A DNA stretch of 64,000 nucleotides from an uncultured Candidatus Saccharibacteria bacterium (GTDB lineage Bacteria; Patescibacteriota; Saccharimonadia; Saccharimonadales; CAYLGV01), in contig CAYMZG010000001.1 of NCBI GenBank assembly GCA_964394925.1, positions 67,656 through 131,655 on the forward strand, in the 5' to 3' direction. Below are positions 6,283 through 29,929 of this stretch, one piece after another. Below the pieces are notes generated by a model that had not been told where the DNA came from, did not search any database, and saw only the letters and a program-made list of their open reading frames with translations. The stretch's first letter is position 1; each line of letters begins with the position of its first letter. A program made the translations under genes and the position numbers.

Positions 6283-7122
6283 ATGAATAGTCAATTTGAG
6301 GCGCCTACTAGCCATGATGAGTCCGTGGTTGAGCAAACGAGCATTGTTGATTCTTATTGGGTCCGTATGTATCCAAAAATCAACGGTGCCGCTAGTGTAG
6401 TTGAAGCTGCCTCGGGTTTGCTGACCGGTAATATAAGTGTTGCGGTTGATGGTATGCATGGTACGGCCGAAATTGTTATTGCTAATTCCCAGATTACACA
6501 CGCCCATGAGCATGATCATATTAACGATAAAAAGCGCAAGCGAATCTATACTGCCCTATCGGGGTTAGCGCTTGGTGCAGCGGGCTTAGCTTTAGCAGAG
6601 GCAACCGGCGTAGCCGATTGGCAATCAGACAACCAAGTGATGGAGACGGTCAGTTGGCTTTCATCGGGTGTTGCAGCAACATCAGCATGGGCCGCCGGTA
6701 CTGCCCTCGTAAAGCGCATACGTTCAAAATACCACCGTTATTTTCACGCCCCCCTTACCGAAACTGAGCATGACGTAACGAGGCATGTATTGCTTCTGGA
6801 TGTAACTGCATCAACCCTGGCATTTACTAGTGCGAGTGCCCGTATTGCAACGCAGATCCTTCAAAGCAAGGGTTACTCGGGCCTCGATACCGAAATGCTC
6901 GAGCATAGCATTGGAGTTGCGAGTGGCCTGTACGGAGCGTACTTATTTAGACCAACGAAATCCAACCTCCAGCACCACAGCCACACCGAAAGCCAGGAAA
7001 CCTTACCTCCCGCTGTTGAAGAAATGGAGCAAATACAGCCACGACAGCGTGTTTTGGCTCGCATGTTTGGCAGAAAAGCTCTCAAAGAAAACATCGATAC
7101 AATGACAGACACAGAAAACTAA
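6283..7122 (+). CDS. Hypothetical membrane protein, His-rich loop
   Basis: 279-aa ORF with HAHEHDH and hydrophobic segments. No confident family assignment. Confidence 0.45.
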   Translation: MNSQFEAPTSHDESVVEQTSIVDSYWVRMYPKINGAASVVEAASGLLTGNISVAVDGMHGTAEIVIANSQITHAHEHDHINDKKRKRIYTALSGLALGAAGLALAEATGVADWQSDNQVMETVSWLSSGVAATSAWAAGTALVKRIRSKYHRYFHAPLTETEHDVTRHVLLLDVTASTLAFTSASARIATQILQSKGYSGLDTEMLEHSIGVASGLYGAYLFRPTKSNLQHHSHTESQETLPPAVEEMEQIQPRQRVLARMFGRKALKENIDTMTDTEN

Positions 7123-7243
7123 GAGGTAACTCGACTACTATGCATCCTACGTTAGATACGTTTTGATGTCTTGAGATAGATTACCTTAGAGGAAATACTT
7201 TGCATTATATACCTTTATATGTTGTGTTAAAATTAAAGTATCT

Positions 7244-8026
7244 ATGGCAGAACCAACTGATGCAAGAAATCAACTAGACACTTTCGTAGTGCCCTTCGAA
7301 GAACAAACTTTAAGCTACGAAGCTGCCGTTCAGGCAGGAGTTATCTTCAGAGAGGGCATGGAAAACCTGTTCCTTCAAAATATGGAGGTCAGCATTCAGG
7401 CTGATCACAAAGATGGTGGTCCGCTGCATGCTGATGTCCGTCTACTCATTGAGGGTAGGGACTCATCAAAACTCCGAATTATAGTAAGAAAAAATAACCC
7501 CGAACACACAGATGATGAGGTAGTAGGCAGGCCACTTTATAGGATTCATATAACTGAAGAAAGACCAGATCGTTCAGACGGCACAATAATTTTTTATAGC
7601 TTCCACGAAAGCAGCAGTCTGGTAACTAGAAGGGATGTTTCTGAAGATTGGGAACAAGAATTGAAGCTGCGAAGACAACTCGAACCAATGCCTGATTTTA
7701 CAGGAATGAGCCGAGCAGAAACTGCTGCTTATTTTGACAAGGCTGCTGCTCGCTCACAGGAGAGAGTCGCAAATCTAAATTTAGAAGTTGAAATGGGTAT
7801 TAATGACCAGCCAGTTGGAGTAGAAGAGGTTGAGGCGTTGCTTGAATTACTACAGAGTGCTATACCACTATCTGAAGCCGACTGGGAACTTATGCAAATA
7901 ACGAAATATGACGGTTTTGATGGAGAAAATTGGGATAGTTCTCAAGAAACTGATGATAATGCAAATCGAGTTAGCAGAATTCGAAAAGCTGCTAGCACCC
8001 TTTTGAATCTTATTCGAAAAAGATAA
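7244..8026 (+). CDS. Hypothetical acidic protein
   Basis: 260-aa ORF convergent with the RT gene. No recognisable motif. Confidence 0.45.
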   Translation: MAEPTDARNQLDTFVVPFEEQTLSYEAAVQAGVIFREGMENLFLQNMEVSIQADHKDGGPLHADVRLLIEGRDSSKLRIIVRKNNPEHTDDEVVGRPLYRIHITEERPDRSDGTIIFYSFHESSSLVTRRDVSEDWEQELKLRRQLEPMPDFTGMSRAETAAYFDKAAARSQERVANLNLEVEMGINDQPVGVEEVEALLELLQSAIPLSEADWELMQITKYDGFDGENWDSSQETDDNANRVSRIRKAASTLLNLIRKR

Positions 8027-8195
8027 CCGTTTGACACTATTTGAGAGACGAAACAAGCCCATTCAGGCTCTAATTCAGTAATTCAAACATTTGGTGCGCA
8101 TTTACAGAATTTGCTCAAACTCTTCAATTCGCTCATGGATGATAACATATTCCGAGCTCTTACAATACCCGAACCACGGGAGATGTTAGGAAAAG

Positions 8196-9536
8196 TTATT
8201 TATTAGCTTCGGGTTTGGTAAAAAGCTCCTTTAGGTGCTTCTTATCCTCGTTCGTATTTATATTGTCTTTAACACTTTGGAGCTTGGTCTCGAACTTACT
8301 GAGACCTAGTGCCTTCAACTTCTTCTGGAATGTTCGGTCAGGATGCTTAAAGCTCAGCCCAAAGCTATCTACCAATTCTTCAATGGCTCTTGTATACACA
8401 AGGTTGATATTGAAGTAACTCGACTTAACTACCTTATCAGCTGATGTAAACCAGTATGTATTTGCCCAGGAATTACATATGCGCTCCAATGTTTCCAGTT
8501 TGTAGCCCAAAGACTTATTCATGTACTTTTTGTTCTTTAATATGGTCCTAATCTTGGTTGATGTTTTCTTGAACGCCCCGGCTGACGGATAAAGCCTACT
8601 CGCCTTAAAATGAATACCCAAGAATTCAAAATCATCAGTATTACAGACATATGATTTGCTCTTGTGTTTCTTGGCTTTCAGAATAGTCCGGGCTTGCAGC
8701 GGGTACAATTCCAGTTGCAGCTTTGCCACTTCCTCTCTCGCTATTTTGTCAGCCTCAAGAGCATCCTCAAGACTTTTAGTTAGTACCACAAAGTCATCTG
8801 CATACCGTATGAGCTTGAAACCTTTGTCCAATAGCACACGGTCAAAATCTTTTAAGTAGATGTTGGAGAACAACGGCGACAATATACCACCCTGGGGAAT
8901 ACCATACTCTAGGTCGGGGAATAGCTCTGATATTTCCTTTGAACCATGCTTTTTGCGCAAGGCTTGAATGTTACCTATTTCCTGGGCGAGACTAGCGCTT
9001 ATTAAATCATTGAGTGTTGTGTCCTTGGATAGCGCCGGAAAGACCATCTGGTCCAAAAGTATGTCACGCTTAACCTCGCCAAAGTAGTTCTTAATATCTC
9101 CCTTGTAGCAGACCGTATAGCCCTCACTAATGAGCCGATTTATTTCGCTTATCGCTTTTAGTAACCCTCGGTCCTTAATGTATGCATAGCTTGCATCGTT
9201 ATGGACATTGAAAGCCTTCTCTAGCACTTCGTGTATTTCAATCTCAATAGCTTTCTGTACCACCCGGTCGGCTACGGTTGCAACACGGATAGGTCGCTTT
9301 TTGCCCGTAAACCCTTTTGGTATTGCCACGCCTCTAATCTTAGAAAACTTATAACCACCCTTAGACAAGAGCTTGTCTCGGATATTATCCAAGTTAGCGT
9401 CAAGGTCAGCCTTGAAGGCTTGGATGGTCGTATTGTCTATGCCGTAAGAAAGCTTATTGCGGCGTAAAGACCTCCAGGCATTATTCAGCTGGTCTTTCTC
9501 TGCTATTCGTTGTAGTCGTGTAGTTGCATTGGGCAT
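8196..9536 (-). CDS. Stand-alone reverse transcriptase, group-II-intron-like/UG-type (447 aa)
   Basis: RT motifs: IPKGFTGKKRPIRVATVADRVVQKAI, SYAYIKDRG, GDIKNYFGEV, GIPQGGILSPLFSNIYL, RYADDFVVL, FEFLGIHF, and a thumb/X-like ICNSWANTYWF. The N-terminus MPNATTRLQRIAEKDQLNNAWRSLRRNK aligns with typical RT0 regions, so the ATG at 9536 is preferred. An alternative upstream ATG lies at 9812. Confidence 0.85.
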   Translation of the reverse strand: MPNATTRLQRIAEKDQLNNAWRSLRRNKLSYGIDNTTIQAFKADLDANLDNIRDKLLSKGGYKFSKIRGVAIPKGFTGKKRPIRVATVADRVVQKAIEIEIHEVLEKAFNVHNDASYAYIKDRGLLKAISEINRLISEGYTVCYKGDIKNYFGEVKRDILLDQMVFPALSKDTTLNDLISASLAQEIGNIQALRKKHGSKEISELFPDLEYGIPQGGILSPLFSNIYLKDFDRVLLDKGFKLIRYADDFVVLTKSLEDALEADKIAREEVAKLQLELYPLQARTILKAKKHKSKSYVCNTDDFEFLGIHFKASRLYPSAGAFKKTSTKIRTILKNKKYMNKSLGYKLETLERICNSWANTYWFTSADKVVKSSYFNINLVYTRAIEELVDSFGLSFKHPDRTFQKKLKALGLSKFETKLQSVKDNINTNEDKKHLKELFTKPEANK

Positions 9537-9597
9537 ATTATTTAACACCCTAATGCGCTTTGAGCTGTTAGACAGGGCGGTTACATATAGGTCTCCT

Positions 9598-9744
9598 CCA
9601 ACAGTAGTTTCGCTCCTGGTCATCATATGTCCAACAAAGGACATACTTGGCAGACCAGCCAACGCCACTATGATGGCGAGATACCACCTGCTCAGCAGAT
9701 GCAACAGCGAACTGTTACTCCTACCGTTTTGTTCCGCAGGGCAG
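9598..9744. repeat. 147-bp direct repeat, RT-proximal copy
   Basis: Identical by eye to 9904-10050; offset is exactly 306 bp. Confidence 0.9.
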
Positions 9745-9903
9745 TGGTCGATTTTCACATCTGACCCCTGGGTAGAACACAAATTGCTGCTCGGTTGTTG
9801 TGCGATTTGCATCGAAACCCCCGTCTCCTTCACGCTATTAGTTTTGTAAGTGGTCGTCTCAAAGCTTTGGGTGTCACCGCCAGCGACCTTAATGCGTGTT
9901 ACA

Positions 9904-10050
9904 CCAACAGTAGTTTCGCTCCTGGTCATCATATGTCCAACAAAGGACATACTTGGCAGACCAGCCAACGCCACTATGATGGCGAGATACCACCTGCTCA
10001 GCAGATGCAACAGCGAACTGTTACTCCTACCGTTTTGTTCCGCAGGGCAG
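9904..10050. repeat. 147-bp direct repeat, promoter-proximal copy
   Basis: Identical by eye to 9598-9744. It begins about 7 nt downstream of the predicted -10 box. Confidence 0.9.
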
Positions 10051-10057
10051 CCCTTAC

Positions 10058-10066
10058 ATTATAGCA
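10058..10066 (-). promoter_or_regulatory. Extended -10 promoter (TGCTATAAT) for the RT leader
   Basis: The minus strand reads ggggTGcTATAATgtaaggg|ctgccc. The predicted TSS coincides with the first bases of the upstream repeat copy. Confidence 0.5.
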
Positions 10067-10129
10067 CCCCTGTTGGTGAGACTCCGTTGTATAAATAGCC
10101 AATTTTTGGGGCTGAATTTACCAAAGCTT

Positions 10130-11260
10130 TTAAAAGCTCAGCCACTCTTCATTCTGGACAGCACCACGGTTCTTGATGCGAATACCTGGTTCGTCTGTCA
10201 CTTGACCTATTGCTTGAGCCACGACACCTGCTTGTGCAGCTTCCGCTAACACCTTTTCAGGTTCTGGTGTAGCGATAACCATTCCAGAACCCATGTGCCA
10301 TTTACCGTAGGCTTTTTCGTCATCAAAACCTCGTAACCGCTGAACTTCAAGCATTATTTTTGGTGGTGTAATCGGACTATCTAACGTAACACCTAAGCCA
10401 GAAGGTTCAAGCATTCGTCCTAACTTGCTAGGCTGACCGCCGCCAGTTATATGTGCCACGCCAGTCACTTTTGCCTTTGGCTCTTTTTCAATGTCGTATC
10501 CACCAGTTAATTCACTGACAAAACCTGAGTAAATAACCGATGGCTTTTGCACCAATCTACCCAGGCTAAGTTCACCAAGTTCTGCAATAACTTCATGTTG
10601 CCATTCTGGTCCATAGTGTTCCAGCATCGCTTTACGAACATCGGTTATCCCGTTAGAACGGAAACCATGCTCAGCTAGACCAACAAGCGTGTCACCAGGC
10701 TGTATTTGATGTCCAGTCAACATACGCTCTTTATGTGCAAACCATAAGACTGCTGCACCCCAGTTATAGTTAAAGTCACCATAACCACCAACCCTATCAC
10801 CCAGTTCGGCAACCTCGCCGTTCACAACCACAACTCTTGCAGCTTTTGCCGCATCTACATAACCTTGTCCAAGCTGCCGTACAGCATCGCGAGTGTGTTC
10901 TGTGTCGTTAAGCTGCCTAACATCAAGAATTGAGCCAATGGCAATTGGTTCTGCGCCACGCACTACCGCATCGTCACAAACCATAGCGAATAAGTCATGC
11001 GCAACAACCGAGTGGTCATCAAGCCGTTCAGAAACTTCTACTTTAGTGCCTACGCCATCAAATGCTAGGTTCATATACATATTGCCGAGGTCTTTCAGCG
11101 CAGTTGCAGGGATAGCCCGTAGACCTGAGAATGACTCATGAAACTCTACCAATAACCCTGGTCGGTTATCGTGTGTCATTTTTGATGCTTCGTAGAGCAT
11201 CCTCGAAACATCATCTCCTAGTTCAATATTCACATCTTGGATAGGTCCGCGTTCAGCCAT
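10130..11260 (-). CDS. purM: PurM-like AIR synthase family protein (phosphoribosylformylglycinamidine cyclo-ligase-like)
   Basis: DGVGTK motif (AFDGVGTKVEV), DLFAMVCDD and AHITGGGQ. The ATG at 11260 is preceded by AAAGGAG and a TATAAT box; the ORF-track start at 11317 is probably too long. Confidence 0.7.
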   Translation of the reverse strand: MAERGPIQDVNIELGDDVSRMLYEASKMTHDNRPGLLVEFHESFSGLRAIPATALKDLGNMYMNLAFDGVGTKVEVSERLDDHSVVAHDLFAMVCDDAVVRGAEPIAIGSILDVRQLNDTEHTRDAVRQLGQGYVDAAKAARVVVVNGEVAELGDRVGGYGDFNYNWGAAVLWFAHKERMLTGHQIQPGDTLVGLAEHGFRSNGITDVRKAMLEHYGPEWQHEVIAELGELSLGRLVQKPSVIYSGFVSELTGGYDIEKEPKAKVTGVAHITGGGQPSKLGRMLEPSGLGVTLDSPITPPKIMLEVQRLRGFDDEKAYGKWHMGSGMVIATPEPEKVLAEAAQAGVVAQAIGQVTDEPGIRIKNRGAVQNEEWLSF

Positions 11261-11535
11261 AAAACTCCTTTTCATAAGATTATAGATACCTATCACCGCA
11301 AACCAAAGCAGTAGCACTTTTAATAAGCATAAAACGGGGGGCGGGTCGCCTTTGACCCCTGTTAAAGGTACTCCGCTGTATAAATAGCGAATTTATGGGG
11401 GTAGATTTTACCAAGCGTTTTTTGGACAGAAAAAAGCAATACCGAATTTTTGGGAACAACTTTCAAAATACGCTTTTTGCGCCAAGAAATGGGCGACTCG
11501 CGTAATAGTATTCGGCGTAAGCTGGTACTGGTTTA

Positions 11536-12396: not shown

Positions 12397-14049
12397 ATGG
12401 CTGAGCTAAACAATACTCAGAAATTATTAGAACTACTCCAAGCAGGTCAACCAAAGTCACCGGCTGATGTTGACACTGGTACTGTTCGCTATGCGTTGTA
12501 TGCTCGCAAGTCAACCACTAGCGAAGACAGACAGGCGTCTTCTATTGAGGACCAAATTAAAGAGTGTATGGAGAATGTCGTATCTCCTAATAACCTTAAT
12601 ATCGTAAAGGTCTATGACGAAAGCTTCTCAGCAAAAGTAGCTGATACGCGCGTGAAGTTTAATGCAATGATTAGCGAGATTGAGAACGGTCGTATTGACG
12701 GCGTTATTGCATGGCATCCTGATAGGCTCTCACGAAATATGAAAGAGGCTGGTGCAATCATTGACCTTGTAGATAGAGGTCTAATTAAGGACCTACGATT
12801 TAGTACATTTACTTTTGAGAATACCCCTGCTGGCAAAATGCTCCTGGGCATAACTTTCGTCATGGCAAAGCAATACTCAGAGCACCTCTCGGAGTCAGTG
12901 GACCGAGGCAATAAGCGAACGGTCGTGGAAAGAACTGAGTTTATTGGCAAATTCAAGCATGGTTATATTGTAGATATTGACCGCGCATTCCAACCCGACC
13001 CACACAACTTCACCAAGGTTAAAGAGATGTTTGCCATGGCGCTCGCCGGTAAATCACAGAAGGATATCCGACTATGGATAAATGAGCAGGGTTATACGGT
13101 CCAAAAACGCGCAGGTGGTGAATATGTGCAGCACATCTGGGATAAAGATGATGTGTCTAAGCTACTCAGAGACCCTCACTATGCCGGGGTACACAAATGG
13201 GGCAAAAACCTGACCGACCTAGTTGAGGCTTACGACTTTGAGCCGATGATAACCGTTAATGAATTCCTCAGGATAAATAAGATAGATAGCCTGAACTCAT
13301 CAAAGGTATTGGCAATTAGTAGACCAAGGAGCGGTGATATAGGCGCTGACCTGCTTCGTGGTATGGTCTACTGCTCTATGTGTAATAAGACCTTTACCTC
13401 AATGCTTATACCAAAACGAGACAAAGTTACTAAGGAAATCATCCATGCTCGCTACTACTATAAATGCGAGACAGAAGGCTGCTCTATGGTTAATAAATCT
13501 GCTCGCGGTGGGCTGGTCATAGAGGCTGCGCAACAGTTCTTTAGGCAATACCTATTCGTTACTAAGAGCAACTATGCCTATTACGCGAAGGAGGCTGAAA
13601 AAGAGGCTAACCGTAAGGCGACTGAGTTTACTAGCGCCATAGCAAGACTAAAGCTGCTCATTGCCAACAAAGAGAAATCATATGAGGAGGTAAAAGACCT
13701 CATCATAAAGAACCCCGAGCTAAAAGACCACTACGACCTGGCAAAATATGCTAAGGAAATTAAAAAGCTCAAGAAAGACTATAAGGAGGCAGCCGACTCA
13801 CGCGACAAAATTAAGAGCGCTATTCCAAGTTTCGAGGAATACCTCAAACTCCTGGAGTCGACTCCCGTTATTCTGAGTAAAATACGCGACATGAAGACCA
13901 TGGATGCTCTACTGCGTGTTTTCTTCTCTAATTTCACGATTACACCGGGCGAAAAAGACTTTCGTAAGGGGTCAACTGTTACCTATAAACTAAACGAACC
14001 CTGGCAAGGGTTCGTTGATGACGATGATTTCGTTTCTGGTGCCAGATAG
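12397..14049 (+). CDS. Large serine recombinase (rec1)
   Basis: N-terminal resolvase-type catalytic region (YALYARKSTTSEDRQ...DGVIAWHPDRLSRN), a recombinase domain, a zinc ribbon (CSMCNK...YYKCETEGC) and a coiled-coil tail. The last 4 codons and the stop lie in the shared att-like core/IR. Confidence 0.9.
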   Translation: MAELNNTQKLLELLQAGQPKSPADVDTGTVRYALYARKSTTSEDRQASSIEDQIKECMENVVSPNNLNIVKVYDESFSAKVADTRVKFNAMISEIENGRIDGVIAWHPDRLSRNMKEAGAIIDLVDRGLIKDLRFSTFTFENTPAGKMLLGITFVMAKQYSEHLSESVDRGNKRTVVERTEFIGKFKHGYIVDIDRAFQPDPHNFTKVKEMFAMALAGKSQKDIRLWINEQGYTVQKRAGGEYVQHIWDKDDVSKLLRDPHYAGVHKWGKNLTDLVEAYDFEPMITVNEFLRINKIDSLNSSKVLAISRPRSGDIGADLLRGMVYCSMCNKTFTSMLIPKRDKVTKEIIHARYYYKCETEGCSMVNKSARGGLVIEAAQQFFRQYLFVTKSNYAYYAKEAEKEANRKATEFTSAIARLKLLIANKEKSYEEVKDLIIKNPELKDHYDLAKYAKEIKKLKKDYKEAADSRDKIKSAIPSFEEYLKLLESTPVILSKIRDMKTMDALLRVFFSNFTITPGEKDFRKGSTVTYKLNEPWQGFVDDDDFVSGAR

Positions 14050-14260
14050 CCAGCATATTCCAAACAATAAATGCCACTAATGTAGACGTGTACAAGCTTG
14101 AAGCTCTGGCACAGCAATTTAACCTAGCGGGAGATTTGCTCCAAGCATAAAGCTGGAAGGTAAATCACAGCCTGTGCAGGTTCTGTTTAATGACAAGTGC
14201 TTGGTAGCGCTTTGCTGCTGCCAATGTTGCTAGGCAATAACAGTGAGGTATCAGTGAGAA
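14037..14260. repeat. IR-A left arm (224 bp), begins with core TGGTGC
   Basis: Perfect reverse complement of 24003-24226 when compared block by block. Confidence 0.9.
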
Positions 14261-14910
14261 CTTAATTCAGATAGTAGCACCTTGAAGTTAAGCTCACCTA
14301 TATTCTTGGGCGAGATAACAACATTCTGTGCGCTGCTTAGTGTCATATAACTGTGGCTGACTAATTCAGGTATAGCTTGGAGCCAAAGAGCCTTGCTCCT
14401 CATAATTACAATCGTTTTATTTTGCTTTATTGCTTCCTTAACAAGCTCAAAGGAGTAAAGCTGTGAAGGAGTAAAAGCGTTGATATGTTTGTAGTTAATT
14501 GAGTGATAGGGAAAGTATTCAATCATCATAATTTTATCTCTAAGTGCTTCTAGGGACACGCCAGCATTTAATAGTGGTTTAAGTTTTGCGCTCCACCATT
14601 TATAGCCACCCGTTTTTTCTAGCCCGCCGTTAAAGTAATAGAATGGTGATTCAAAGGGGTCATTTAGATTACCCCGACACCCTTCAATAAATGCAGTGAG
14701 TTTCATATTCACGCTTACATCTGAATCAGTAAAACCTGGATTAAGTGCCAAGAACACTACCTTTGCATTATTAAGACCACCTACAAGAGGTTCAGGTAGC
14801 GTATCAAGTCGCAAGCCAATGAAGTTTTTGTGATTCTCAATAACTGCTAAGTCATCATCAAGAATATAAGGTTCTCTAAATGGTAGTGACTTCCAAGGAT
14901 TACTTCGCAT
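14251..14910 (-). CDS. Hypothetical protein, possible uracil-DNA glycosylase superfamily member
   Basis: VVFLALNPGF resembles the MUG/UDG motif-1 (G-x-NPG) and EYFPYHS loosely resembles motif 2. The assignment is weak. The last 10 nt lie inside IR-A. Confidence 0.45.
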   Translation of the reverse strand: MRSNPWKSLPFREPYILDDDLAVIENHKNFIGLRLDTLPEPLVGGLNNAKVVFLALNPGFTDSDVSVNMKLTAFIEGCRGNLNDPFESPFYYFNGGLEKTGGYKWWSAKLKPLLNAGVSLEALRDKIMMIEYFPYHSINYKHINAFTPSQLYSFELVKEAIKQNKTIVIMRSKALWLQAIPELVSHSYMTLSSAQNVVISPKNIGELNFKVLLSELSSH

Positions 14911-14996
14911 ACATATATGTTATTACATTCGTTTAGAAGTAATAGCTTTTACTTTTATTAGTTCCCCTATACCACTACAAAGTCTATAATCAGCTT

Positions 14997-15848
14997 ATGG
15001 GATTATTATCTAAACTATTCAATTCGGACAATCAAAAGGAACCAAAAATTACTGTAACCGTAACTGGCGGAATAGAAGATGACGGTTATAAACCAGCGAA
15101 GCGTGAGTTTAGTGATAATGAAGCTGGTTTACTAGATACTATTAACACTAATGAAACAGTAGTTCCCACGCAAAAACTTCCGTTTTCTAATGTATGTCCA
15201 TACTGTGGAGTAGTCCAATCCAAGCCAGTAGGACGCAAGAAGAACTGTTCAGATTGTAAAAAGCCTATCTATGTAAGAACTACGCAAGACCTTTTTCCTT
15301 CTAGTGCATTAACGGAAGAACAAGTAGCTCACGTTGATTTTTATATGGGAATGAAGAACTACCTAATGGCTACGAAAGATGATTTCAAAAGGCACGAAAA
15401 GCTCTTACAGAAGAAATGGAATACACCAAAAGTTAATACCTACGACGTACTTTGGTCAATGTACAACGACACAGAGCTTTTAAAGCGAAATATAGATAAA
15501 TCCTACACTGGAAAGTGGGCTACTATACAGTTATTACGTAATCATCAGATTGCTACTTTTGAAGCAGCAGAGTATCAAGCAGCAAGAGGTAATGACCCAA
15601 CCCCTTACCTAAAAACAGCACAAGAGTATTCACTAAAAATGGCAAAGTTAAATGAATACGCAAAAGGTCTTACAGTTCAAAGTTATTCTTGTTGCGACGC
15701 CTGTACAAAGTTCCACGATAAGACGTTCACATTAGACTTTATTGAAAAAACACCAGTACTACCTATTAAGACCTGTACTCACCCTTTTAGGGACGGTTCT
15801 AAGTTTGTTCTGTGTACTTGCAGGTACAGTGAATACACCGAATACTAA
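14997..15848 (+). CDS. Hypothetical Cys-rich (zinc-ribbon) protein
   Basis: CPYCG...CSDCKK and CCDAC...CTHPF...CTCRY clusters. No known family recognised. Confidence 0.5.
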   Translation: MGLLSKLFNSDNQKEPKITVTVTGGIEDDGYKPAKREFSDNEAGLLDTINTNETVVPTQKLPFSNVCPYCGVVQSKPVGRKKNCSDCKKPIYVRTTQDLFPSSALTEEQVAHVDFYMGMKNYLMATKDDFKRHEKLLQKKWNTPKVNTYDVLWSMYNDTELLKRNIDKSYTGKWATIQLLRNHQIATFEAAEYQAARGNDPTPYLKTAQEYSLKMAKLNEYAKGLTVQSYSCCDACTKFHDKTFTLDFIEKTPVLPIKTCTHPFRDGSKFVLCTCRYSEYTEY

Positions 15849-15852
15849 CAAG

Positions 15853-17355
15853 TTATTCCTTGCACAGCTCCATTAAGTAATCGTAAATCTTTACCATTGC
15901 TAGCGTGTCTAAGCAACAATAGGTTTTTAGCGACTTGTAAATATGTTGAGCTTCTTCGTTGGTTAAAGCGCCTGTAACAGCTTCATACCAGCGAATAGAA
16001 GCTGATAGTCCATTTTGTATATCAAGCTCTTTATAGCTAAACTCTGGGACTAATACCGGCAATACATATTTTATTGAGCTACTACCCTTAAAATCGTGAT
16101 GTACATAATGCTGTTTACTAAACACGTCCATTAAATCAAATACACGATTATTCATATCTGTAAGATAGTCGGAGTATTCGGGATACGACTTAGCCATTTC
16201 TACATTACGTCCAGTTTCAAAAGATTTATTCCAGACTATTACACTCCCTGTATCGCCAAGGTTTTCCTTCAAACTTCGCAGCAACCCTTCCATTGGAGCT
16301 TTCTCGTTATCGGTCGCTAAGTATTCAAAATGCTCTAGTTCACTATTTTTATCTTTCTTTACGTGTAAAGAATACTGGAAAGGTAATTGCTGAAACGGAG
16401 AGCTACCACTAACAAGCGGTAAGGCAGTAGATACAGTTTCGTAATCCAAAAAGTAAAGTGGAAACTCTAATTCGCTGCATAGCTCTTTAATAGAATCTTT
16501 ATCAATTATAGGCTCTTTTGTTTTCGCTACTTGAACTTGATTCTTTTGTATAACGGAAAGCTTTAAGTCTGCTGGAACGTCTTTCACATCATAAATATCA
16601 CCGTCAATGAGTATTCCTAATTTCTTACCGTTAATACGAGAGATATTAAAAACAGAGTATTCGGGAATGTTTGGATTAAAATAATGAAAAGTCGGACAAT
16701 GACCAGACCTAGTTTTTAATTTACAGCTACAGGATTTAGGCTCGTCACTCCTATTAACAAGCTCCACAGCGTCATTTATCTGCTGTTTGATTGTAGGCAT
16801 AATTTTTTCTACTTTTTCAGTTACATCTATTGTTATTAAAAGTTCTTTAGGGTTGATTGCACCTCTACGAACGTACTCTTTATTCAAGTGAATTACTTGT
16901 ACATTGGAGATGAGATACCCTGATTCTTCAAAAGCTATACGTTGAAAAGTAACATCATATATATGCTCTGGCTTAATTGAGTTTGTAGACTTAACTTCGT
17001 ATAGCGTCCAAGTATCATCAGCATTTTTCTTGATTACGTCAGCCATTGCTAATAAGCCAGTTTCAGTAACTACTGTTGCTTGAAATAGAGTTTTAGCATT
17101 CTCTGCAACTAAGACATCAGTGTCTTCTTTTGCTTTTCTACCTCTTGTAGTAATTAGTGTAGCTTCTGGGAATAATTCACGGGCTTTTGCTTCAACCTCG
17201 TTACCTTGTTCTAGGCGACGGTTAATAGCTTCTTCTTCATCAGTAGGGACTAGTTCTGGTTTATGTTTCCAAAGCCAAAGGTAACTAGGGCAACACTGAT
17301 ATTTCAAGAAATCTGACTTTGATAAATATGTTTTTGTTTTTGTGGCGGTTGTCAT
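15853..17355 (-). CDS. DUF2779 domain protein (predicted PD-(D/E)xK/Cas4-like nuclease N-terminus)
   Basis: The N-terminus YLSKSDFLKYQCCPSYLWLW is characteristic of DUF2779, and there is a Cys cluster (CSCKLKTRSGHCP). The start overlaps the upstream stop (ATGA). Confidence 0.7.
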   Translation of the reverse strand: MTTATKTKTYLSKSDFLKYQCCPSYLWLWKHKPELVPTDEEEAINRRLEQGNEVEAKARELFPEATLITTRGRKAKEDTDVLVAENAKTLFQATVVTETGLLAMADVIKKNADDTWTLYEVKSTNSIKPEHIYDVTFQRIAFEESGYLISNVQVIHLNKEYVRRGAINPKELLITIDVTEKVEKIMPTIKQQINDAVELVNRSDEPKSCSCKLKTRSGHCPTFHYFNPNIPEYSVFNISRINGKKLGILIDGDIYDVKDVPADLKLSVIQKNQVQVAKTKEPIIDKDSIKELCSELEFPLYFLDYETVSTALPLVSGSSPFQQLPFQYSLHVKKDKNSELEHFEYLATDNEKAPMEGLLRSLKENLGDTGSVIVWNKSFETGRNVEMAKSYPEYSDYLTDMNNRVFDLMDVFSKQHYVHHDFKGSSSIKYVLPVLVPEFSYKELDIQNGLSASIRWYEAVTGALTNEEAQHIYKSLKTYCCLDTLAMVKIYDYLMELCKE

Positions 17356-17744
17356 AGTTCTACATTTCTTATTCGGTCAAGACGATATTTATAACTGTAA
17401 CCCTTCGTACCTGGTATATGCAAATAAGTGTTATCAAATGTGAAGCTATAAAATACCCTAAAAGTTTTATCATCTTTGTAATAGATTTTTGCAGGTTGGT
17501 TTGATACAGAGCGATATTTCAAATACTCCAAGATGTATTCCATAGATACTTCTTGTTCAAACTTTACTCGTTTAACTACAGGTTTAGTTGCAGACCTAAC
17601 AGTCTTCTGTGTATTCCATTCACCGCACGAAGTACATCTGCCTGACCAAGTTTCAGTCACAGCGTCGCAGTTGCTGCACTGATACCAATTTTTATTAGAA
17701 GTAGATTTTTCTTGCCGACCTATTTGCTGCCTAAACGAGTGCAA
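17352..17744 (-). CDS. Zinc-ribbon protein; the coding frame very likely extends upstream to 17882 or beyond (see slippery site)
   Basis: CSNC-x10-CTSC ribbon. The track start is a TTG, but the same frame stays open upstream to 17939 and encodes a second ribbon (ICSVC-x17-CYLC) with no ATG/GTG/TTG start. Confidence 0.6.
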   Translation of the reverse strand: MHSFRQQIGRQEKSTSNKNWYQCSNCDAVTETWSGRCTSCGEWNTQKTVRSATKPVVKRVKFEQEVSMEYILEYLKYRSVSNQPAKIYYKDDKTFRVFYSFTFDNTYLHIPGTKGYSYKYRLDRIRNVEL

Positions 17745-17878
17745 CGTTTTGCCAGTTACTTTTTCGTAACATAGATAGCACTCTGGTCGTCCTTTGAAAG
17801 GAAATAGCCACGACCATTTTACTTCCTCACAAACGCTACAAATCCGCTTATCGCCTTTTTGTACTGATTCAATAACGG

Positions 17879-20800
17879 CTAAGAAACCGTCAATAGCCCC
17901 TTGCGTATATTCTTTTTTTTTACGACGTTGGCTAATAAGCCGTCAAGTTGCTTTATGGGTTCTTTTCCAAGGTTAAACTTGTTCAGTCTTAGAAACTTAT
18001 AGCCATAGCCTTCAAGTACTTTTTGCCTATAAACATCATCTGCTTTTAGATAACTTTCGTAGTTACTTTCATTTACTTCATCTAGGTTTATGAAATGTTC
18101 ATTAAATCCGTCATATTCAATAACTATTTTTTGTTTACCGAATGTAAGCAAGAAGTCTACTTTATACATTGGGTGGCTGTAATTTTTATCTAGCGACTTC
18201 AAGTATTCGCCTAGCGGGAACTGTGGAACTAGTTCTAGTTGGTCTTTGTTCTTTTGGTAGAACTCGGTCTGATAGAAGTAGTTCTGTACTAGAGGTTCCA
18301 TCGCAGACTTCTCGTCAGTACCACCGATTTGATGAGTAGTGGTGTTAAGAGCATTTTCATAATAAAGTAGCGCAGTTTTAACTTCGCCCCAATACTCATT
18401 GACAGGCTTACTAAGTACAAAATGTATTGTTTCTTTTGCTCGGCTGAAACCAACATTTAGACGTTGCTCACGTGTCCCGAACTCCTTCCCAGTCTTAACT
18501 GATTCTTCCATTGAAATTGGGAAAATATATCGGTGTGTATTCTCATCACTTTTTTCAACCATACTGTACAAAAGATAATCTCGTTCTTCGCCTTGGCAGG
18601 TATCAAAGGTCATCACCTTTAGGGAGTGTTCGTGTAGCCAGTCAGAAATCCCCGAGTCATTTAGCAGGTTGTTAATAAACGTGGCTTGCTCTCTGTGTGG
18701 TGTAATAACGCCTAATGAGCCAGCATAATCCTTGTTTTTGAGTGCTGTAAATTGCTCTAGGATATAGTTAGCTTCCGCAGAGTTTGTCAGCCTGTATTGT
18801 TCGGTGACACCTTCTGTCTCAACTTGCGTAAACTTGATAACTTCACTAATAGGTAATGAACGAGCTTTCATACACTGTAAGTTATTGTCATAGAAATACT
18901 TGTTTGAATAACCAATGATTTCTGGGTAACAACGAAAATGCTTTTTCAGCATTGTTTGATAATTTGTAATGAATCTACAGAAGTCCAAAATTGAGCGTTT
19001 AACATTAAAGTTTTCATCTACCCTTGCAGAGTAAACTGAACTGTAGTCTTTAGCCTGTGCGTCAATTGAAGCCCTTAAAGTTTTCAGTAGGTTACTGCGA
19101 TACTTGCTGTTAGTAAGTACGCTAGCGTTTCCAGCCTTTACGTTACTAAACTGCTTCTCATCACCAAGTACCAAGATTTTTTTGCCACGAATCAAAGCTG
19201 GTAGAGCTTGGGCAATACTAACCTGGGAAGCTTCGTCAATTATTACTAAATCAAACAAGCCTTTTTCTAAAGGAATATACGTTGCGTAATCTCTAATGCC
19301 AGCTAGTATGCAGGGGAACGCTTGCTTTAAGTCGCTGAAAAGAACTTTAGGAAACTTCTGCTTAGATTTGAGCATAGATTTCAGCGTTCTAATATCAGCA
19401 GCGTGGTGGTCTACATAGTCAATAATACGAGTATCTAAAATGTTAGCCATTTTAGCTGCATTAAGTAGGTACAGGCTTTCGGAACTATCTGCAAAGTTAT
19501 CTGTAGCTATAACTTCAAACTTATCGGCAAGTTTCTGTGCTTCTTTCTTATCATTCAGGTAATCAGCTAGTTCGCTTTCACTCATATCTATGAATCGCTT
19601 ATCAACTGCGTCTACAGATTCAGTGCCTTCTGTAAGGTTTATGGCTTGTGCAACATCAGGGTAGCTGAAAATGAATTGCTCTACTGTGCTTCTATGATTT
19701 AGAGCAGTTTCTAGTTCTTCAAGCTCACCAGCAAGTGATTTTAGTTTTTTGATTTCTTCATCAGGGCTTGATAACAATACATTTACGCTGGATTTAATAA
19801 TTGTAAGCACCTGTTCGTTAGCGTGAGCGATTTCCTGCAAATTACGAGCATTGCTTAATGCGGTAATGGCACTGTTAATGTCTTTGAGTTGCGATAGCTT
19901 GTAGCTCTTAATGAAGTCATTTTCATTTGGTTTACTTAGTAGATTTAATACTTTTTTAATGTTTTCTACTTCATCGCCTGGCAGGAGCAATAGCTCTAGG
20001 ACAGGTTTCCACGAACTTTCATCTAGTCCTTGTTGCTGCAATTTACCCTTTAGAAAGTTCAGTGTGTCTACGAACCCTACCAGCTCTGTAACGTGTTTTT
20101 CGGGCGAAGATAGGTTTAGATACGGAAGTTGAGTTTTAAGCTCCCTTACAAGGGCTTCTATTGAAGATTTCTTGCCAGAATAGCCAAGAAGCCTAGACCG
20201 TAGAGATTGTAGCTTTGAAATAAAGTCATTTAGTGAAGTATGTAATTCGCTTAGGCTTACTTCACATTTCAAAGATTGCTCAATAATATCTTTTGAGTTG
20301 TAGATATTAGGGGCAAACATTCTGACCGCATTTACTGTGTCCCTAGAGCGATAGAAATTATCTTCTGCTGCAAATACGTCAGCTATAGTACTAGCTTTGC
20401 TTAATGACTTAGTTCCGCTATATGATGATTCCTTCAAATAAGCTATACATTCATCTAGGTTTTCATTTATATCATCTACTTGCTGTTTTAGCTGGTTTTG
20501 ATTCTCAACACTTTGTTTCTTGTACCCATTGATAAACGCAGCGAAGTCTTTACTCAATGAATGCCGTGATTTTGCGTATGCGTCAGTAGCTAGAATAATT
20601 TGCTCTAAGTTTGATAAAGCTGGTGAATTAGCGAATGGAATCAAATACAAAACTTTGCTTTGTTTCAAGGCTAATACTGATTTATGTACGTCCTTGAAAG
20701 ATTCAATTAGTTCATCATCAACGGCACTAACCCAATCAATGCCTGTGTACTTTTCTTCTGACTTAATAACTGATTTAACATCAGATAAACTAATCTTTTC

Positions 20801-22549: not shown

Positions 22550-23049
22550 ATTTTGTGAGCTTGCTTACGAATAACTATACAACATTTACTCCTGTAAATC
22601 CTGCTTAAGTTAAAAATGGCAGGAAATACTTATTTAAGCCCTCTACAGCCCTATATGAAATGTCCTAAACTATAGATGTGGAAGAACTGCGTAAAAAAAT
22701 TTGAGGAGCATTAAAGAATATGCCACCCATTGACTGGTCGGACACTAGACCGCCAACTGAACACGCAGTTCACGCTATGATTAGGAACTTACACGCTGCT
22801 GCTGGCACAGACGCAGACAACACTCTAAAACGCAAAGAACAGTGAGATAACAGTGAGCAAATAGTGCGATAGTGCCTGACGCTGGTTGAGCTTTAAGGCT
22901 ACAGATTTTTCTGACAATGCCGCAAAACCCATTTGTGTTATTTTATATATACCTTGTACTAGGTACATACCTTTTACTTATACAGACCTAGTACTATACA
23001 AATCTAGTACTATACATAACGTAATAGTGCCATTTCATTACGTGAACTG

Positions 23050-23391
23050 TCACGAATCCTCTTGCAGGGCGTAATGTTTATCATTATGGGTACGGTTAAT
23101 AATTACACCAGAGTAACTTTCAACCTCGTCAATGATACTGTCTAACAAGAACCCGTAGAAAGATGAATGCTTGCCATACTCAAACTTATCTTTCCAGCGT
23201 TCACTGGATTTTTCTTTATAGCTCCCAGGATACAGGCCGTATTCACCCTTATGTGCGTGGAATAGTACAAACTTGAAATCCAAGTATAGGTCAATTGGCA
23301 TTATATGTACCTTAACTCTGTATGTGCCTTCGTCTAAACTTGTAGGGGCACTATATACTTCTACTTGTTCAAGATAGAGTTCTACCTGCAT
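23050..23391 (-). CDS. Hypothetical protein (113 aa)
   Basis: ORF overlaps the upstream gene by 10 nt (operonic). No recognisable motif. Confidence 0.45.
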   Translation of the reverse strand: MQVELYLEQVEVYSAPTSLDEGTYRVKVHIMPIDLYLDFKFVLFHAHKGEYGLYPGSYKEKSSERWKDKFEYGKHSSFYGFLLDSIIDEVESYSGVIINRTHNDKHYALQEDS

Positions 23392-23798: not shown

Positions 23799-23923
23799 TT
23801 AACCCTACCTTTATATAGAGCGAACAGACCAGTCGGCATACTGGCTCGCTTTTATTTAGGAGTAACGAAGCACACCTACGCTCCGTTAAACGCTGTTTGT
23901 AAGAGTCACTTTCACTTACCTAC

Positions 23924-23952
23924 AGTATACGCTAATGCTTATGGAAAGTCAA
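23924..23952 (-). promoter_or_regulatory. Sigma70-like promoter (TTGACT-17-TATACT)
   Basis: The minus strand reads TTGACTttccataagcattagcgTATACT. It lies just inside the segment bounded by IR-A, upstream of the 138-aa gene. Confidence 0.55.
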
Positions 23953-28422: not shown

Positions 28423-28423
28423 T

Positions 28424-29928: not shown

Positions 29929-29929
29929 C

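Follow-up and report, generated by a model that had tools for sequence, protein, structure and literature searches.

[quoted passage not shown] We give this description of the module, which is drawn from sequence comparisons, about an even chance of being correct. With confidence that is likewise evenly balanced, we propose that reverse transcription proceeds as far as the 5' end of the leader and then switches from the upstream copy (R1) of a long direct repeat to the downstream copy (R2), thereby putting together a membrane-protein gene in permuted or concatenated form. The initial annotation of this region had suggested that cDNA made on one repeat could re-anneal on the other. This idea gains independent support from an in-frame, stop-free unit that is present in most lineages and from the finding that R1 is the intact coding copy; the jump itself we infer. 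We found no published description of such a system.

Architecture of the module

On the minus strand of the window, the module is arranged in the order promoter, R1, S5', S3', R2, D and RT, where S5' and S3' are the two parts of the spacer (S) between the repeats (R) and D is the region between R2 and the RT start. A repeat search bore out the two annotated direct repeats, which are 147 nt each and 100% identical, as well as the period of 306 nt from start to start and the 159-nt spacer (9745–9903) that separates them. The extended −10 box that had been reported upstream was also read at its expected place, 7 nt from the first base of R1, and the ATGTCC/GGACAT hairpin is present in both repeat copies. 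The leader, previously put at about 520 nt, spans about 515 nt (~10051 to 9537). The two ends of R pair weakly in the minimum free energy (MFE) fold. The features of the locus are as follows.

10058–10066, minus strand: extended −10 box TGCTATAAT; consensus scan 6/6 with TG extension
9904–10050, minus strand: R1, upstream repeat, 147 nt; predicted structured RNA whose frame encodes the hydrophobic helix RWYLAIIVALAGLPSMSFVG
9745–9903, minus strand: spacer S, 159 nt; S5' extends the R1 frame and holds the 5' strands of the long-range helix, S3' holds an RBS and ATG
9845–9876, minus strand: helix 5' strands in S5'; P1 9870–9876 TGACACC, P2 9858–9865 GCTTTGAG, P4 9845–9849 TTACA
9810–9830, minus strand: RBS AAGGAG (9825–9830) and in-frame ATG (9810–9812); proposed start of the small protein (MQIAQQPSS...)
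9598–9744, minus strand: R2, downstream repeat, 147 nt; equals R1 in the window
9537–9597, minus strand: region D, 61 nt; carries the 3' strands of the long-range helix
9581–9585 (P4, TGTAA), 9557–9564 (P2, CTCAAAGC) and 9543–9549 (P1, GGTGTTA), minus strand: helix 3' strands in D
8196–9536, minus strand: RT, 446 aa, YADD; group II intron-like (G2L) lineage by its best matches
9745–10050, minus strand: proposed repeat unit, R1 plus spacer, 306 nt or 102 codons; stop-free in one sense frame
8055–8070, minus strand: terminator-like hairpin followed by a T-rich tail, past the RT stop codon; from a consensus scan only

A free-standing RT of the group II intron-like lineage

The protein carries the YADD active site noted initially (IRYADDFVVL), but it is 446 rather than 447 aa long because its start ATG is at 9536–9534 and position 9539 is an in-frame AAT. 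RVT_1 is its only Pfam match; neither a GIIM/maturase Pfam domain nor an endonuclease domain was detected. Inspection by eye shows a SWANTYW motif that is thumb-like, the group II-type motif QGGILSP is present, and the D248 and D249 columns are invariant over nine close homologues. The closest solved structure is that of the G2L4 RT (9d5x, E = 8.5e-29), and the match to TIGR04416, the model for group II RT/maturases, reaches 201.6 bits and is under its cut-off of 300. Matches to models for defence-associated RTs include NF041746 for Drt2 (59.3 bits, cut-off 390) and PADLOC Drt2 (E = 8e-16, far below the best match), along with RT_UG17, which is a secondary match only (E = 6.3e-37). The score of 46.3 bits for retron_St85_RT (cut-off 235) places the protein outside of the retron clade.

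Whether the RT gene lies inside a group II intron was examined with Rfam. No intron RNA was matched at E ≤ 1 in positions 7000–11500 of the window, and none was matched at the gathering threshold in 15 repeat-bearing loci, while group II RNA is present in five repeat-less, low-scoring relatives. A mobile group II intron is thus rejected on the basis of the missing ribozyme domains, the TIGR04416 score under the cut-off and the lack of GIIM. Judged by its best named matches and by the absence of intron RNA, the RT is a free-standing member of the G2L lineage.

Conservation of the repeat-flanked layout

Some 25 independent loci with homologous RTs show the same layout of promoter, R1, spacer, R2 and RT. 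These loci represent 10 RT lineages (clustered at <50% RT identity, with a minimum of 30%) and several phyla. Repeats are 100–158 nt long and units 273–480 nt, the spacers of the loci first aligned are 139–364 nt, and the layout is absent from the lower-scoring relatives that are true group II introns. An example from a cultured organism is provided by Chitinophaga agri (CP048113.1), whose complete, single-contig genome of 7.97 Mb includes repeats of 106 nt that are 100% identical and have a period of 357. The core of the window spacer is ~90% identical, by eye in an alignment, to those of loci L004 and L006, although the RTs are only 54% identical.

Given that the window copies are 100% identical and that the contigs of several homologues end within the leader, an assembly artefact or a recent duplication of no function had to be considered. 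The comparative data refute this explanation, to which we assign next to no probability. The layout is retained across the 10 lineages and several phyla, the two copies differ in many loci (identities range from 91 to 100% and are frequently short of complete), the complete C. agri genome has the same arrangement, and the flanks of the two copies covary.

No conserved neighbour gene was found around the RT loci that we compared, and therefore any effector must lie inside the module. The initial claim that the RT has no effector gene is probably wrong, given that a small hydrophobic protein seems to be encoded within the leader, as described below.

Concerted evolution and exchange between the repeats

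The two repeat copies of a locus evolve in concert, as judged from sequence identities of 94–100% within loci versus 58–77% between divergent loci, and from the 16–52 locus-specific sites that are common to both copies versus 0–2 that are specific to one copy. Concerted evolution would be expected of a diversity-generating retroelement (DGR)-like or homing element in which the distal repeat is overwritten by cDNA made from the RT-proximal one, so that the copies stay alike, and the RT-proximal copy is indeed the non-coding-like one in four loci. However, the 60 mismatches found over 23 loci exhibit no adenine bias (A occurs in R1 in 17/60 and in R2 in 16/60), and this spectrum largely refutes a DGR-like reading. 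In addition, the QGGILSP motif is of the group II type and no DGR model matches the RT, the spacers of 139–364 nt are too small for an Avd-sized gene, and R1 directly follows a promoter and does not form the 3' terminus of a target gene. We consider this explanation to be extremely improbable.

Six other loci have an intact RT gene and a single copy of R. Each corresponds exactly to the product of an R1 × R2 deletion (promoter, R, D and RT, with flanks as in the two-repeat relatives), which indicates that recombination between R1 and R2 happens in nature. These loci could be taken to mean that the repeats serve a RecA-dependent exchange at the level of DNA, which in a subpopulation of cells would yield tandem amplification (R-S-R-S-R) or excised circles and so complete the ORF by a kind of phase variation, with the RT acting elsewhere or only homogenising the copies. 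The concerted evolution described above also implies frequent gene conversion. Such a process, however, explains neither why the repeats are so strictly tied to an RT whose YADD is intact, nor the RNA covariation between S5' and D, nor the coincidence of R1 with the promoter, and the loci scanned for repeats include none in which R occurs three times. We judge DNA-level exchange to be a highly improbable purpose of the repeats.

Promoter position and RNA structure

A TGnTATAAT box is located 6–9 nt upstream of R1 in seven loci (the window, L004, L006, L018, L019, L020 and L024), a position that fits a transcript starting at R1, with a predicted start near 10051 in the window. The −10 box of L041 adjoins R1 with a gap of 0, such that the predicted start is placed a few nucleotides inside R1, and the best −10 match of L037 is 17 nt upstream of R1. 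A second −10 box is found at R2 in six loci.

Folding calculations indicate that R is structured. The MFE of the window repeat is −57.1 kcal/mol versus −44.1 for dinucleotide shuffles (z = −3.35), and R is more structured than its shuffles in 21 of 23 loci, with a mean z of −2.1. Pairs internal to R exhibit compensatory changes in the four-sequence alignment of the WIN subfamily. Moreover, RNAalifold analysis of WIN, L002, L004 and L006 predicts a long-range helix that pairs S5', after R1, with D, after R2. Two pairs of P2 are compensatory (CG/UA and AU/GC), and one pair of P1 is seen as AU, GU and GC. In the Bacteroidota-type subfamily, the S5'–D helix is 96% paired and 5 of its 11 pairs are compensatory, a result that is reached by 0 of 500 shuffles. 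Thus, by these alignments, the S5'–D helix covaries in two deep subfamilies, and it encloses the 3' part of the spacer together with R2.

A split reading frame in the leader

The initial annotation proposed the leader as a template RNA. We found that the leader is also coding-like, with frames that appear to be split and permuted around the repeats. At most loci, S3' has an RBS and an ATG or GTG in frame with R2, which encodes a hydrophobic helix downstream of these spacer signals. Past R2, the R frame ends within 0–15 codons, except in the window, L018 and L019; past R1, the same frame is open for at least 37 codons at every locus. Upstream of R1, an in-frame stop is located within 19 nt at 15 of 21 loci, and no RBS-linked start precedes the hydrophobic segment of R1 save for a weak TTG in the window; in seven loci, the first start lies inside or past this segment. 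Because the leader appears to encode a split protein, it is not simply a non-coding template.

If S3', R and S5' were joined in this order, they would commonly form one continuous frame. In 13 of 24 loci, R and spacer together make a multiple of 3 and contain one sense frame without stops, where 0.44 loci would be expected from shuffles; when any crossover point is allowed, 14 of 23 loci are stop-free. An antisense unit free of stops is present in only one locus. For the window unit alone, 24 of 1000 dinucleotide shuffles are likewise stop-free. Eight of the 10 RT lineages would have an assembled ORF without end, and the others one of 77–135 codons; by locus, nine give finite ORFs, and the period is not always a multiple of 3. 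A 19-residue segment with a Kyte–Doolittle value of at least 1.5 is present in 15 of 17 assembled proteins.

The repeat copies are not equivalent in this respect. In L004, L006, L008 and L018, R2 contains in-frame stops that are lacking in R1 of the same loci, and thus an endless frame requires that the body of R come from R1, as would be predicted if the RT runs off the template and then jumps. Restoring the frame in L037 and L041 requires that R2 supply the first ~5 nt of R. For L041 this is consistent with the −10 box that directly adjoins R1, but the L037 box, 17 nt away, gives no such support.

Several observations limit what can be concluded from these frames. The endless-frame statistic is ambiguous because it is logically equivalent to one ORF running across R1, S and R2 in a single frame, and taken alone it does not distinguish concatemers from a conventional protein with an internal duplication. 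The coding case for S5' rests on open frames, indels of 3 and 9 nt, and amino-acid similarity, all of which are confounded by RNA structure, and the variable S5' columns in the Bacteroidota-type subfamily are distributed 21/15/17 over the codon positions, which is not a synonymous-site signature. The window is itself atypical. Its R2 equals R1 and lacks a stop, and its leader ORF is fused in frame to that of the RT (open from 10058 to 8196, or 620 codons, from the TAA of the −10 box through R1, spacer and R2 into RT), whereas all relatives have a stop there.

In most loci, S3'-R2 alone encodes a complete small hydrophobic protein of 58–103 aa. Given that this protein is complete without the RT, a toxin could be expressed directly. 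The locus might therefore be a toxin and RT operon, wherein S3'-R2 is an ordinary membrane-toxin gene and R is a duplicated, RT-bound leader that confers shared mRNA control, with no assembly of a gene. Group II intron RTs bind the DIVa element of their introns, and R is structured here. The additional −10 box at R2 points to a pair of transcripts, both beginning with R; the six single-R loci retain an intact RT, and S5' lacks an excess of changes at third codon positions. In a variant of this explanation, a retron-like antisense cDNA of R2 silences the toxin mRNA, and the S5'–D helix does have a geometry that resembles that of retron a1/a2. However, an operon of this kind does not explain why S5' remains open in phase with R1 for 37–121 codons, why a period that is a multiple of 3 and a stop-free unit recur in eight lineages, or why R1 starts exactly at the promoter. 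Furthermore, the R2 stops in four loci would destroy the toxin gene while R1, which is untranslatable, stays intact. We regard a toxin operon, with the silencing variant sharing the same estimate, as unlikely but worthy of serious consideration.

A proposed route to gene assembly

With these caveats in mind, we return to the proposal that the RT assembles the split gene. We infer a transcript start, a priming site, a jump, second-strand synthesis, expression, toxicity and a role in defence as elements of the following scheme. S3' would supply the RBS, ATG and hydrophilic N-terminus, R the hydrophobic helix and S5' the C-terminal part of the protein. Chromosomal DNA would yield only a C-terminally truncated product (S3'-R2, then a stop), which in four loci would be truncated within R2. 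Transcription would begin at the first bases of R1, and the RT would bind the S5'–D helix and prime cDNA synthesis just 3' of R2, in a geometry like that of retrons or DRT2. After copying R2, the spacer and R1, the enzyme would run off the 5' end of the RNA, and the 3' end of the cDNA, complementary to R1, could then re-anneal on R2, much like R-mediated strand transfer in retroviruses. Template switching by group II intron RTs is reported to be efficient when the enzyme reaches an RNA 5' end (PMC8363836). Each further cycle would add one unit of R plus spacer, and second-strand synthesis would give head-to-tail DNA in which S3', R and S5' occur in order as a complete ORF. By analogy with Neo of DRT2, the membrane-inserting product may act as the effector and would probably be a toxin that brings about abortive infection or growth arrest. 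One complication for the jump is that transcripts starting at the second −10 box, at R2, would be dead-end acceptors.

The same assembled ORFs would arise if the template were instead a circular RNA of unit length, formed by cleavage at one and the same point of R1 and R2 and by ligation, which is translated as a circle and copied by the RT in rolling-circle fashion. Viroids and retrozymes have greater-than-unit-length precursors in which a structured element is duplicated at both ends, and the 1.5-unit layout observed here is similar. A circle is also consistent with an ORF that shares the sense of the RNA, which neo of DRT2 does not, and with the regular structure and WIN-subfamily compensatory changes of R. 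The repeats would then be processing sites, and an endless circular ORF would be translated over and over into a repetitive membrane protein. Such a protein-coding bacterial element would be akin to a retrozyme, would act as a replicon or in immunity, and might have in R a self-cleaving motif of a new type. However, no Rfam ribozyme was matched in the window (E ≤ 1) or in the 15 repeat-bearing loci (gathering threshold), and R is only 58–77% identical between subfamilies, unlike ribozyme cores. A circle also provides no cause for R1 to lie at the transcript start and leaves the S5'–D helix unexplained, because D would be outside of the circle. We consider a unit-length circular RNA improbable, and the retrozyme-like module slightly more so.

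Comparison with known RT systems

The assembly scheme recalls DRT2, in which an RT and an ncRNA generate concatemeric cDNA encoding the never-ending ORF neo (PMC11100668; PMC12039810). Further hallmarks of DRT2 are a second strand whose synthesis is triggered by phage and a toxic product. In both systems the RT stands alone and is encoded together with a structured RNA that lies directly 5' on the same strand and under one promoter; both also have a helix that closes the template region, and no separate effector gene. As proposed here, both would use the template repeatedly to make head-to-tail units that keep one frame open, and would complete in the product a gene that is incomplete in the chromosome. 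However, the present RT is group II intron-like rather than UG/Abi, and its units are 273–480 nt versus 120 nt. Its jump would be guided by 100–158 nt of terminal homology and 5' run-off, whereas DRT2 uses a stem and a 3-nt ACA match. The ORF here has the sense of its template RNA, whereas Neo is antisense, and its predicted product is hydrophobic and finite in about a third of the loci. A truncated version is, moreover, translatable directly from the chromosome.

The terminal repeats resemble the R regions of retroviruses, LTR elements and pararetroviruses in that one repeat copy coincides with the (predicted) start of the transcript and a second lies further downstream, and in that nascent cDNA would, by analogy with minus-strand strong-stop transfer, leave the 5' copy and pair by complementarity with the 3' one. 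In the module described here, the RT gene follows both copies, there is no PBS/tRNA primer, integrase, gag or LTR structure, and the outcome would be the assembly of a gene rather than the replication of a genome.

Among other bacterial RTs, the G2L4 RT has a YIDD motif, acts in double-strand-break repair and uses no dedicated RNA (PMC8632793; PMC12337344; PDB 9d5x). It is likewise free-standing and lacks an intron RNA, but the present clade has YADD and an obligatorily linked, repeat-flanked leader, and identity to G2L4 is low. The similarity to retrons consists of an S5'–D helix that encloses the presumed template and ends beside its 3' end, as does a2/a1, with the RT directly downstream; retrons have neither long direct repeats nor a template that codes for protein, and no msr/msd features or branching G were assigned in the leader. 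Finally, DRT10 (UG17) synthesizes 7-nt telomerase-like tandem repeats and has a separate SLATT membrane effector gene (PMC12632851). Tandem-repeat synthesis and a membrane effector would be shared if our proposals are correct, but the loci described here have no SLATT or other conserved neighbour.

Implications

To our knowledge, no system other than DRT2 has so far been described that lets a cell write a gene absent from its chromosome. If the scheme proposed above is correct, the module would represent a second, independent case of gene writing by reverse transcription in a different RT lineage. It would rely on a simpler trick than DRT2, namely a terminal redundancy of 100–158 nt that is comparable to retroviral R, and its product would be a hydrophobic membrane protein. 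Because the family is present in the cultured species C. agri, this prediction is directly testable, and the module would then offer a testable bacterial analogue of retroviral strand transfer. Given that the homology arms would define the unit, it would also be a naturally programmable maker of tandem-repeat DNA or permuted genes in vivo. For the uncharacterised G2L clades, which are largely of unknown role, it would provide a function, and 'hidden' genes assembled by RTs would be seen as a recurrent strategy that is invisible to ordinary gene calling.

Organization of the locus

The RT gene of the window lies on the minus strand behind a leader that carries two copies of a long direct repeat, R. 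We refer to the upstream and downstream copies as R1 and R2, to the 5' and 3' parts of the spacer between them as S5' and S3', to the stretch between R2 and the RT gene as D, and to one repeat copy plus the spacer as a unit. The locus consists of the following elements:

10066-10058, minus strand: extended -10 box, TGCTATAAT, 7 nt before R1
10050-9904, minus strand: R1, a 147-nt repeat copy
9903-9745, minus strand: spacer, 159 nt
9744-9598, minus strand: R2, a 147-nt repeat copy
9597-9537, minus strand: region D, 61 nt
ATG at 9536 to stop at 8196, minus strand: RT gene, 446 aa

The initial annotation described two perfect repeats with a 306-bp period behind an extended -10 box. A repeat search recovered both copies at 100% identity with a spacing of 306, and the box is read in the sequence where it had been placed. 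The YADD motif attributed to the RT was likewise found, but the reported length of 447 aa was not, because the ATG lies one codon downstream of the start chosen at 9539.

The RT frame of the window is open from a TAA within the -10 box across the entire leader, and accordingly the NCBI gene call for the protein is 577 aa. This in-frame fusion of leader ORF and RT (8196-10058, minus strand) occurs in the window alone. All six relatives checked have a stop in D, including an 83%-identical homologue, from which the window differs in D by 2 nt that remove the stop and let the leader ORF continue into the RT. A membrane-anchored RT is one possible outcome of the fusion; alternatively, the fusion may be tolerated because translation begins mainly at the RT ATG. 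The exact match of R2 to R1 is a further peculiarity of the window.

Identity of the reverse transcriptase

The sole Pfam match of the RT is RVT_1, and the nearest curated model is TIGR04416 (group II intron RT/maturase), with 201.6 bits against a cut-off of 300. The initial annotation had left the family to be settled by RT-family HMMs or a phylogeny. With the HMMs, the nearest group is the group II RT/maturases, below threshold, and the protein is far from Drt2, Drt3a, Drt4 and retron RTs. Identities as a group II intron, retron, DRT2, DRT3 or DRT4 were rejected, as all of the curated scores fall far under their cut-offs. The best PADLOC match is a generic RT model, with RT-Cas1 and RT_UG17 as secondary matches. 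The last of these raised DRT10/UG17 as a candidate, which was ruled out given that DRT10 has 7-nt repeats and a SLATT gene (PMC12632851; 10.64898/2026.04.29.721553). The closest solved structure is the G2L4 RT, followed by the GsI-IIC RT. From the curated models, PADLOC and the closest structures we therefore conclude that the window RT belongs to the group II intron-like (G2L) RTs, an uncharacterised lineage (PMC8632793). It is not G2L4 itself, whose active site is YIDD. No relatives of the RT were found among viral contigs.

Distribution of the two-repeat leader

A protein search returned a close set of RT homologues (83-52% identity) and a wider set (30-42%); P0004, a homologue with 68% identity, comes from a Saccharimonadales MAG. 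Close homologues have the same leader wherever upstream DNA suffices. Among these related loci (given L numbers), the repeats of L004/L005 are 143 nt long and 91% identical with a period of 354, and those of L006 are 144 nt and 94% identical with the same period. In L002, from a Saccharimonadales MAG, the period is 305 and the leader is truncated where the contig ends.

We scanned genome and metagenome collections and compared each locus with itself by BLAST; this revealed a pair of direct repeats, each 100-158 nt long, with 91-100% identity between the copies and periods of 273-480, that ends 26-88 nt before the RT start. Among loci with 600 nt or more of upstream sequence and an RT that reaches 166 bits or more against that of the window, nearly all have this pair. 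Examples include the complete genome of Chitinophaga agri (CP048113.1, locus at about 2,508,500-2,510,450; 106-nt copies, 100% identical, period 357) and a Flagellimonas scaffold (123-nt copies, 98% identical, period 380). The RTs with repeats separate into 10 clusters that are less than 50% identical to one another, the most distant pair sharing 30%. Lower-scoring relatives are without repeats and are true group II introns according to Rfam, which found no intron RNA or ribozyme in 15 repeat-bearing loci and no known RNA family in the window leader. Thus, the proposals that the terminal-repeat leader tracks the RT and that no group II ribozyme surrounds it are both borne out.

Given that the layout is a family trait that includes a complete genome, the duplication is real and an assembly artefact is excluded; we regard the probability of any artefact as negligible. 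The contigs of several homologues (L001, L003, L007, L021 and L022) stop within D or R2, at a point 35-165 nt before the RT start, as would follow from assembly breaking at repeats. In that case, many family members would be invisible in short-read assemblies.

Promoter and RNA structure of the leader

In the window and in L004, L006, L018, L019, L020 and L024, R1 is preceded at a distance of 6-9 nt by a perfect extended -10 box, and thus R1 begins at the predicted transcript start. Six loci (L019, L020, L024, L040, L041 and L052) have a second -10 box (TGnTACAAT or TGnTAAAAT) at the 5' end of R2, either within it or slightly ahead of it, from which R2, D and the RT gene may be transcribed separately. 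In L041 and L052, the R1 bases equivalent to this box are mutated. On the strand opposite the RT, each repeat copy of the window also contains one sigma-70-like match (plus strand, 9647-9674 and 9953-9980; TTGGCA, 16 nt, TATGAT; 10/12 positions).

R is more stable than dinucleotide shuffles in 21 of 23 loci, with a mean z of -2.1. In the window, where R contains the ATGTCC/GGACAT hairpin noted initially, z is -3.35. In the RNAalifold prediction for the window subfamily, S5' and D pair in a nested long-range helix with these strands:

9870-9876 with 9543-9549, minus strand: P1
9858-9865 with 9557-9564, minus strand: P2
9845-9849 with 9581-9585, minus strand: P4

The P2 strands are GCTTTGAG/CTCAAAGC in the window, GCTTCGAG/CTCGAAGC in L004 and GCTTCGGG/CCCGAAGC in L002. 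A Bacteroidota-type subfamily has an S5'-D helix in the equivalent place that is 96% paired, with 5 of 11 pairs compensatory; none of 500 shuffles equalled it, and slid controls reached 18-49% pairing. The covarying helix and the structured repeat therefore indicate that the leader is a structured RNA. The helix encloses S3' and R2 and ends ~12 nt from the 3' end of R2, a geometry like that which positions the template in retrons and DRT2.

Two other pairings were observed. In L026, L029, L023 and L043, GCTTTGAGCGC...GCGCTCAAAGC forms a local hairpin inside D; the window subfamily has the same GCTTTGAG/CTCAAAGC pair, but divided between S5' and D. Within GTCAGGATTGCCCAAGAAC, R has an invariant motif, GGATTGCC, for which pairing with GGCAATCC of the spacer is predicted (alignment A3, columns 93-100 with 318-325; L032, L033, L034, L048, L097, L025 and L096), and this pairing could form from either repeat copy.

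Evolution of the repeats

R1 and R2 are 94-100% identical within a locus, versus 58-77% between divergent loci, and each comparison has 16-52 locus-specific sites common to both copies versus 0-2 copy-specific sites. The two copies therefore evolve in concert. The exception to the low copy-specific count is the close pair L004/L006, which have in common a 9-site patch in R2 that carries stops; the patch is therefore maintained. The spectrum of R1/R2 mismatches rules out a DGR and contradicts DGR-like homing, which we consider very improbable.

Six collapsed loci (L023, L026, L028, L042, L045 and, in Pedobacter sp. Hv1, L099) have the order promoter-R-D-RT with a single R, an intact RT gene and the entire spacer gone. 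Their flanks are as in two-repeat relatives such as L029, L048 and L096, and they are exactly the product of an R1xR2 deletion. Recombination between the copies therefore happens; nonetheless, the two-copy state persists in all lineages. RecA-mediated amplification or excision would leave both the linkage to an RT and the RNA covariation unexplained, and we give it little credence.

The leader resembles a permuted gene

In related loci, S3' carries a conserved ribosome-binding site and an ATG or GTG. The counterparts in the window are:

9830-9825, minus strand: ribosome-binding site AAGGAG, in S3'
9812-9810, minus strand: start ATG, in S3', in frame with R2

Past R2 the frame stops within 0-15 codons (the exceptions are the window, L018 and L019), and past R1 it stays open for at least 37 codons into S5'. 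Conventional translation of R1 is unlikely: in 15 of 21 loci R1 has an in-frame stop no more than 19 nt ahead of it, seven loci have their first start codon within or after the hydrophobic segment of R1, and no start linked to a ribosome-binding site was found before that segment, except for a weak TTG in the window. Because R1 is without a usable start, a conventional two-helix protein across R1-S-R2 was also judged unlikely. Thus, the chromosome order is R1 and a C-terminal part, then a start, an N-terminal part, R2 and a stop. The two pieces share R, and when joined through it they are a complete ORF. Of 17 assembled proteins, 15 contain a stretch of 19 residues whose Kyte-Doolittle hydropathy is at least 1.5, and this stretch is usually encoded by R.

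In 13 of 24 loci the unit length is a multiple of three and one sense frame has no stop, versus 0.44 loci expected from dinucleotide shuffles. An antisense stop-free unit occurs in one of the 24, L052 (351-nt unit, 2466-2816), whose sense frame is stop-free too; the antisense frames of the window unit are not stop-free, two having one stop per unit. If any crossover point in R is allowed, the frame is endless in 14 of 23 loci, spanning 8 of the 10 clustered RT lineages, and elsewhere the assembled ORF is finite, at 77-135 codons versus 24-67 codons in the genome. L004, L006, L008 and L018 have in-frame stops in R2 but not R1, and their endless frame needs a crossover within the first ~56 nt of R. 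L037 and L041 need the first ~5 nt of R from R2. In L041 the -10 box abuts R1, which is consistent with transcription starting a few nt inside R1; the best -10 match of L037 lies 17 nt upstream and lends such a start no similar support. Whether a unit lacks stops and whether a single ORF crosses R1-S-R2 in one frame are one and the same question. Other features must therefore carry the case for assembly: the missing start at R1, where the ribosome-binding site and ATG lie, the stops in R2 and the loci of the finite class.

Variable columns of S5' are distributed 21/15/17 by codon position, with no third-position excess; its indels are 3 and 9 nt and its translations are similar (ISFDAxVYD...VSS). 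For the 173-aa leader translation, AlphaFold2 predicted only two hydrophobic helices and a following extended segment (mean pLDDT 50.2), and searches of Pfam and PADLOC gave no match.

An ordinary small-toxin gene beside an RT, with R serving either as an RT-binding leader that became duplicated or as a target of antisense cDNA, would account for the second promoter and the single-R loci. However, it leaves the open S5' frame, the in-frame unit and the R2 stops unexplained, and we consider it unlikely. We have stronger doubts about a unit-length circular RNA processed at both R copies: the sense-strand ORF and the structured R are compatible with it, but no known ribozyme was found and R is not conserved between subfamilies.

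Proposed mechanism

We judge the most likely mechanism, to which we give about an even chance, to be run-off at the RNA 5' end, a jump from R1 to R2 and assembly of a gene. The transcript would begin at R1, as its promoter suggests. The RT would bind the S5'-D helix region and, judging from its geometry, initiate just 3' of R2, copy R2, the spacer and R1, and then run off the RNA 5' end. The cDNA end complementary to R1 could then anneal to R2, adding one unit per cycle. Support for the jump comes from R1 being the intact copy, from the unit being a clean coding module and from the template switching at 5' ends described for group II-type RTs (PMC8363836). Second-strand synthesis and transcription from the -10 box, present in many units, would yield a complete hydrophobic protein that is predicted to be endless in most lineages.

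A DRT2-type rolling circle on a loop closed by the S5'-D helix was rejected as the main model because R1 would have no role in it and because the R2 stops of L004, L006, L008 and L018 would fall within its unit, which is 293 nt long in the window. DRT2 is nevertheless nearest in logic to the window locus. The two have different RT lineages, jump mechanisms, unit sizes, strands and products, and a test for DRT2 membership excluded the window RT.

Genomic context and possible function

The genes beside the RT vary from locus to locus (AIR-synthase-like, DpnII, KAP NTPase, DNA pol III tau, peptidase S9, methyltransferase, SduA/Mrr), and the conserved module is therefore the leader and RT only. 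In the window, an island-like stretch (12397-25744) adjoins the locus:

12397-14049, plus strand: large serine recombinase
15853-17355, minus strand: DUF2779/Cas4-like nuclease
17879-22549, minus strand: SF1 helicase, 1556 aa, matching PADLOC models PDC-S37 and MkoA/MkoC
24113-25744, minus strand: large serine recombinase

Several ORFs in this island have no family match. Seven tRNA genes lie at 28140-44633 of the window, and tRNA genes also occur near L040, L008, L020 and L024; L040 has two upstream of R1, the nearer one 148 nt away.

The weakest step of our proposal is a role in defence, for which the sole hints are neighbours: R-M, SduA/Mrr, KAP NTPase and recombinase genes, together with the serine recombinases, Cas4-like nuclease and PDC-S37/MkoA-like helicase of the window island. 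By analogy with the Neo protein of DRT2 (PMC11100668), the product may arrest growth, perhaps during phage infection.

The initial annotation knew of no RT system with this architecture, and neither full-text literature searches nor the DRT2, DRT10 and RT review papers turned up an RT whose leader carries long direct repeats. We propose that the window locus encodes an RT that would assemble a gene from its own leader RNA. A system of this kind is already known in DRT2, and the architecture of the repeat-flanked leader itself appears to be new.
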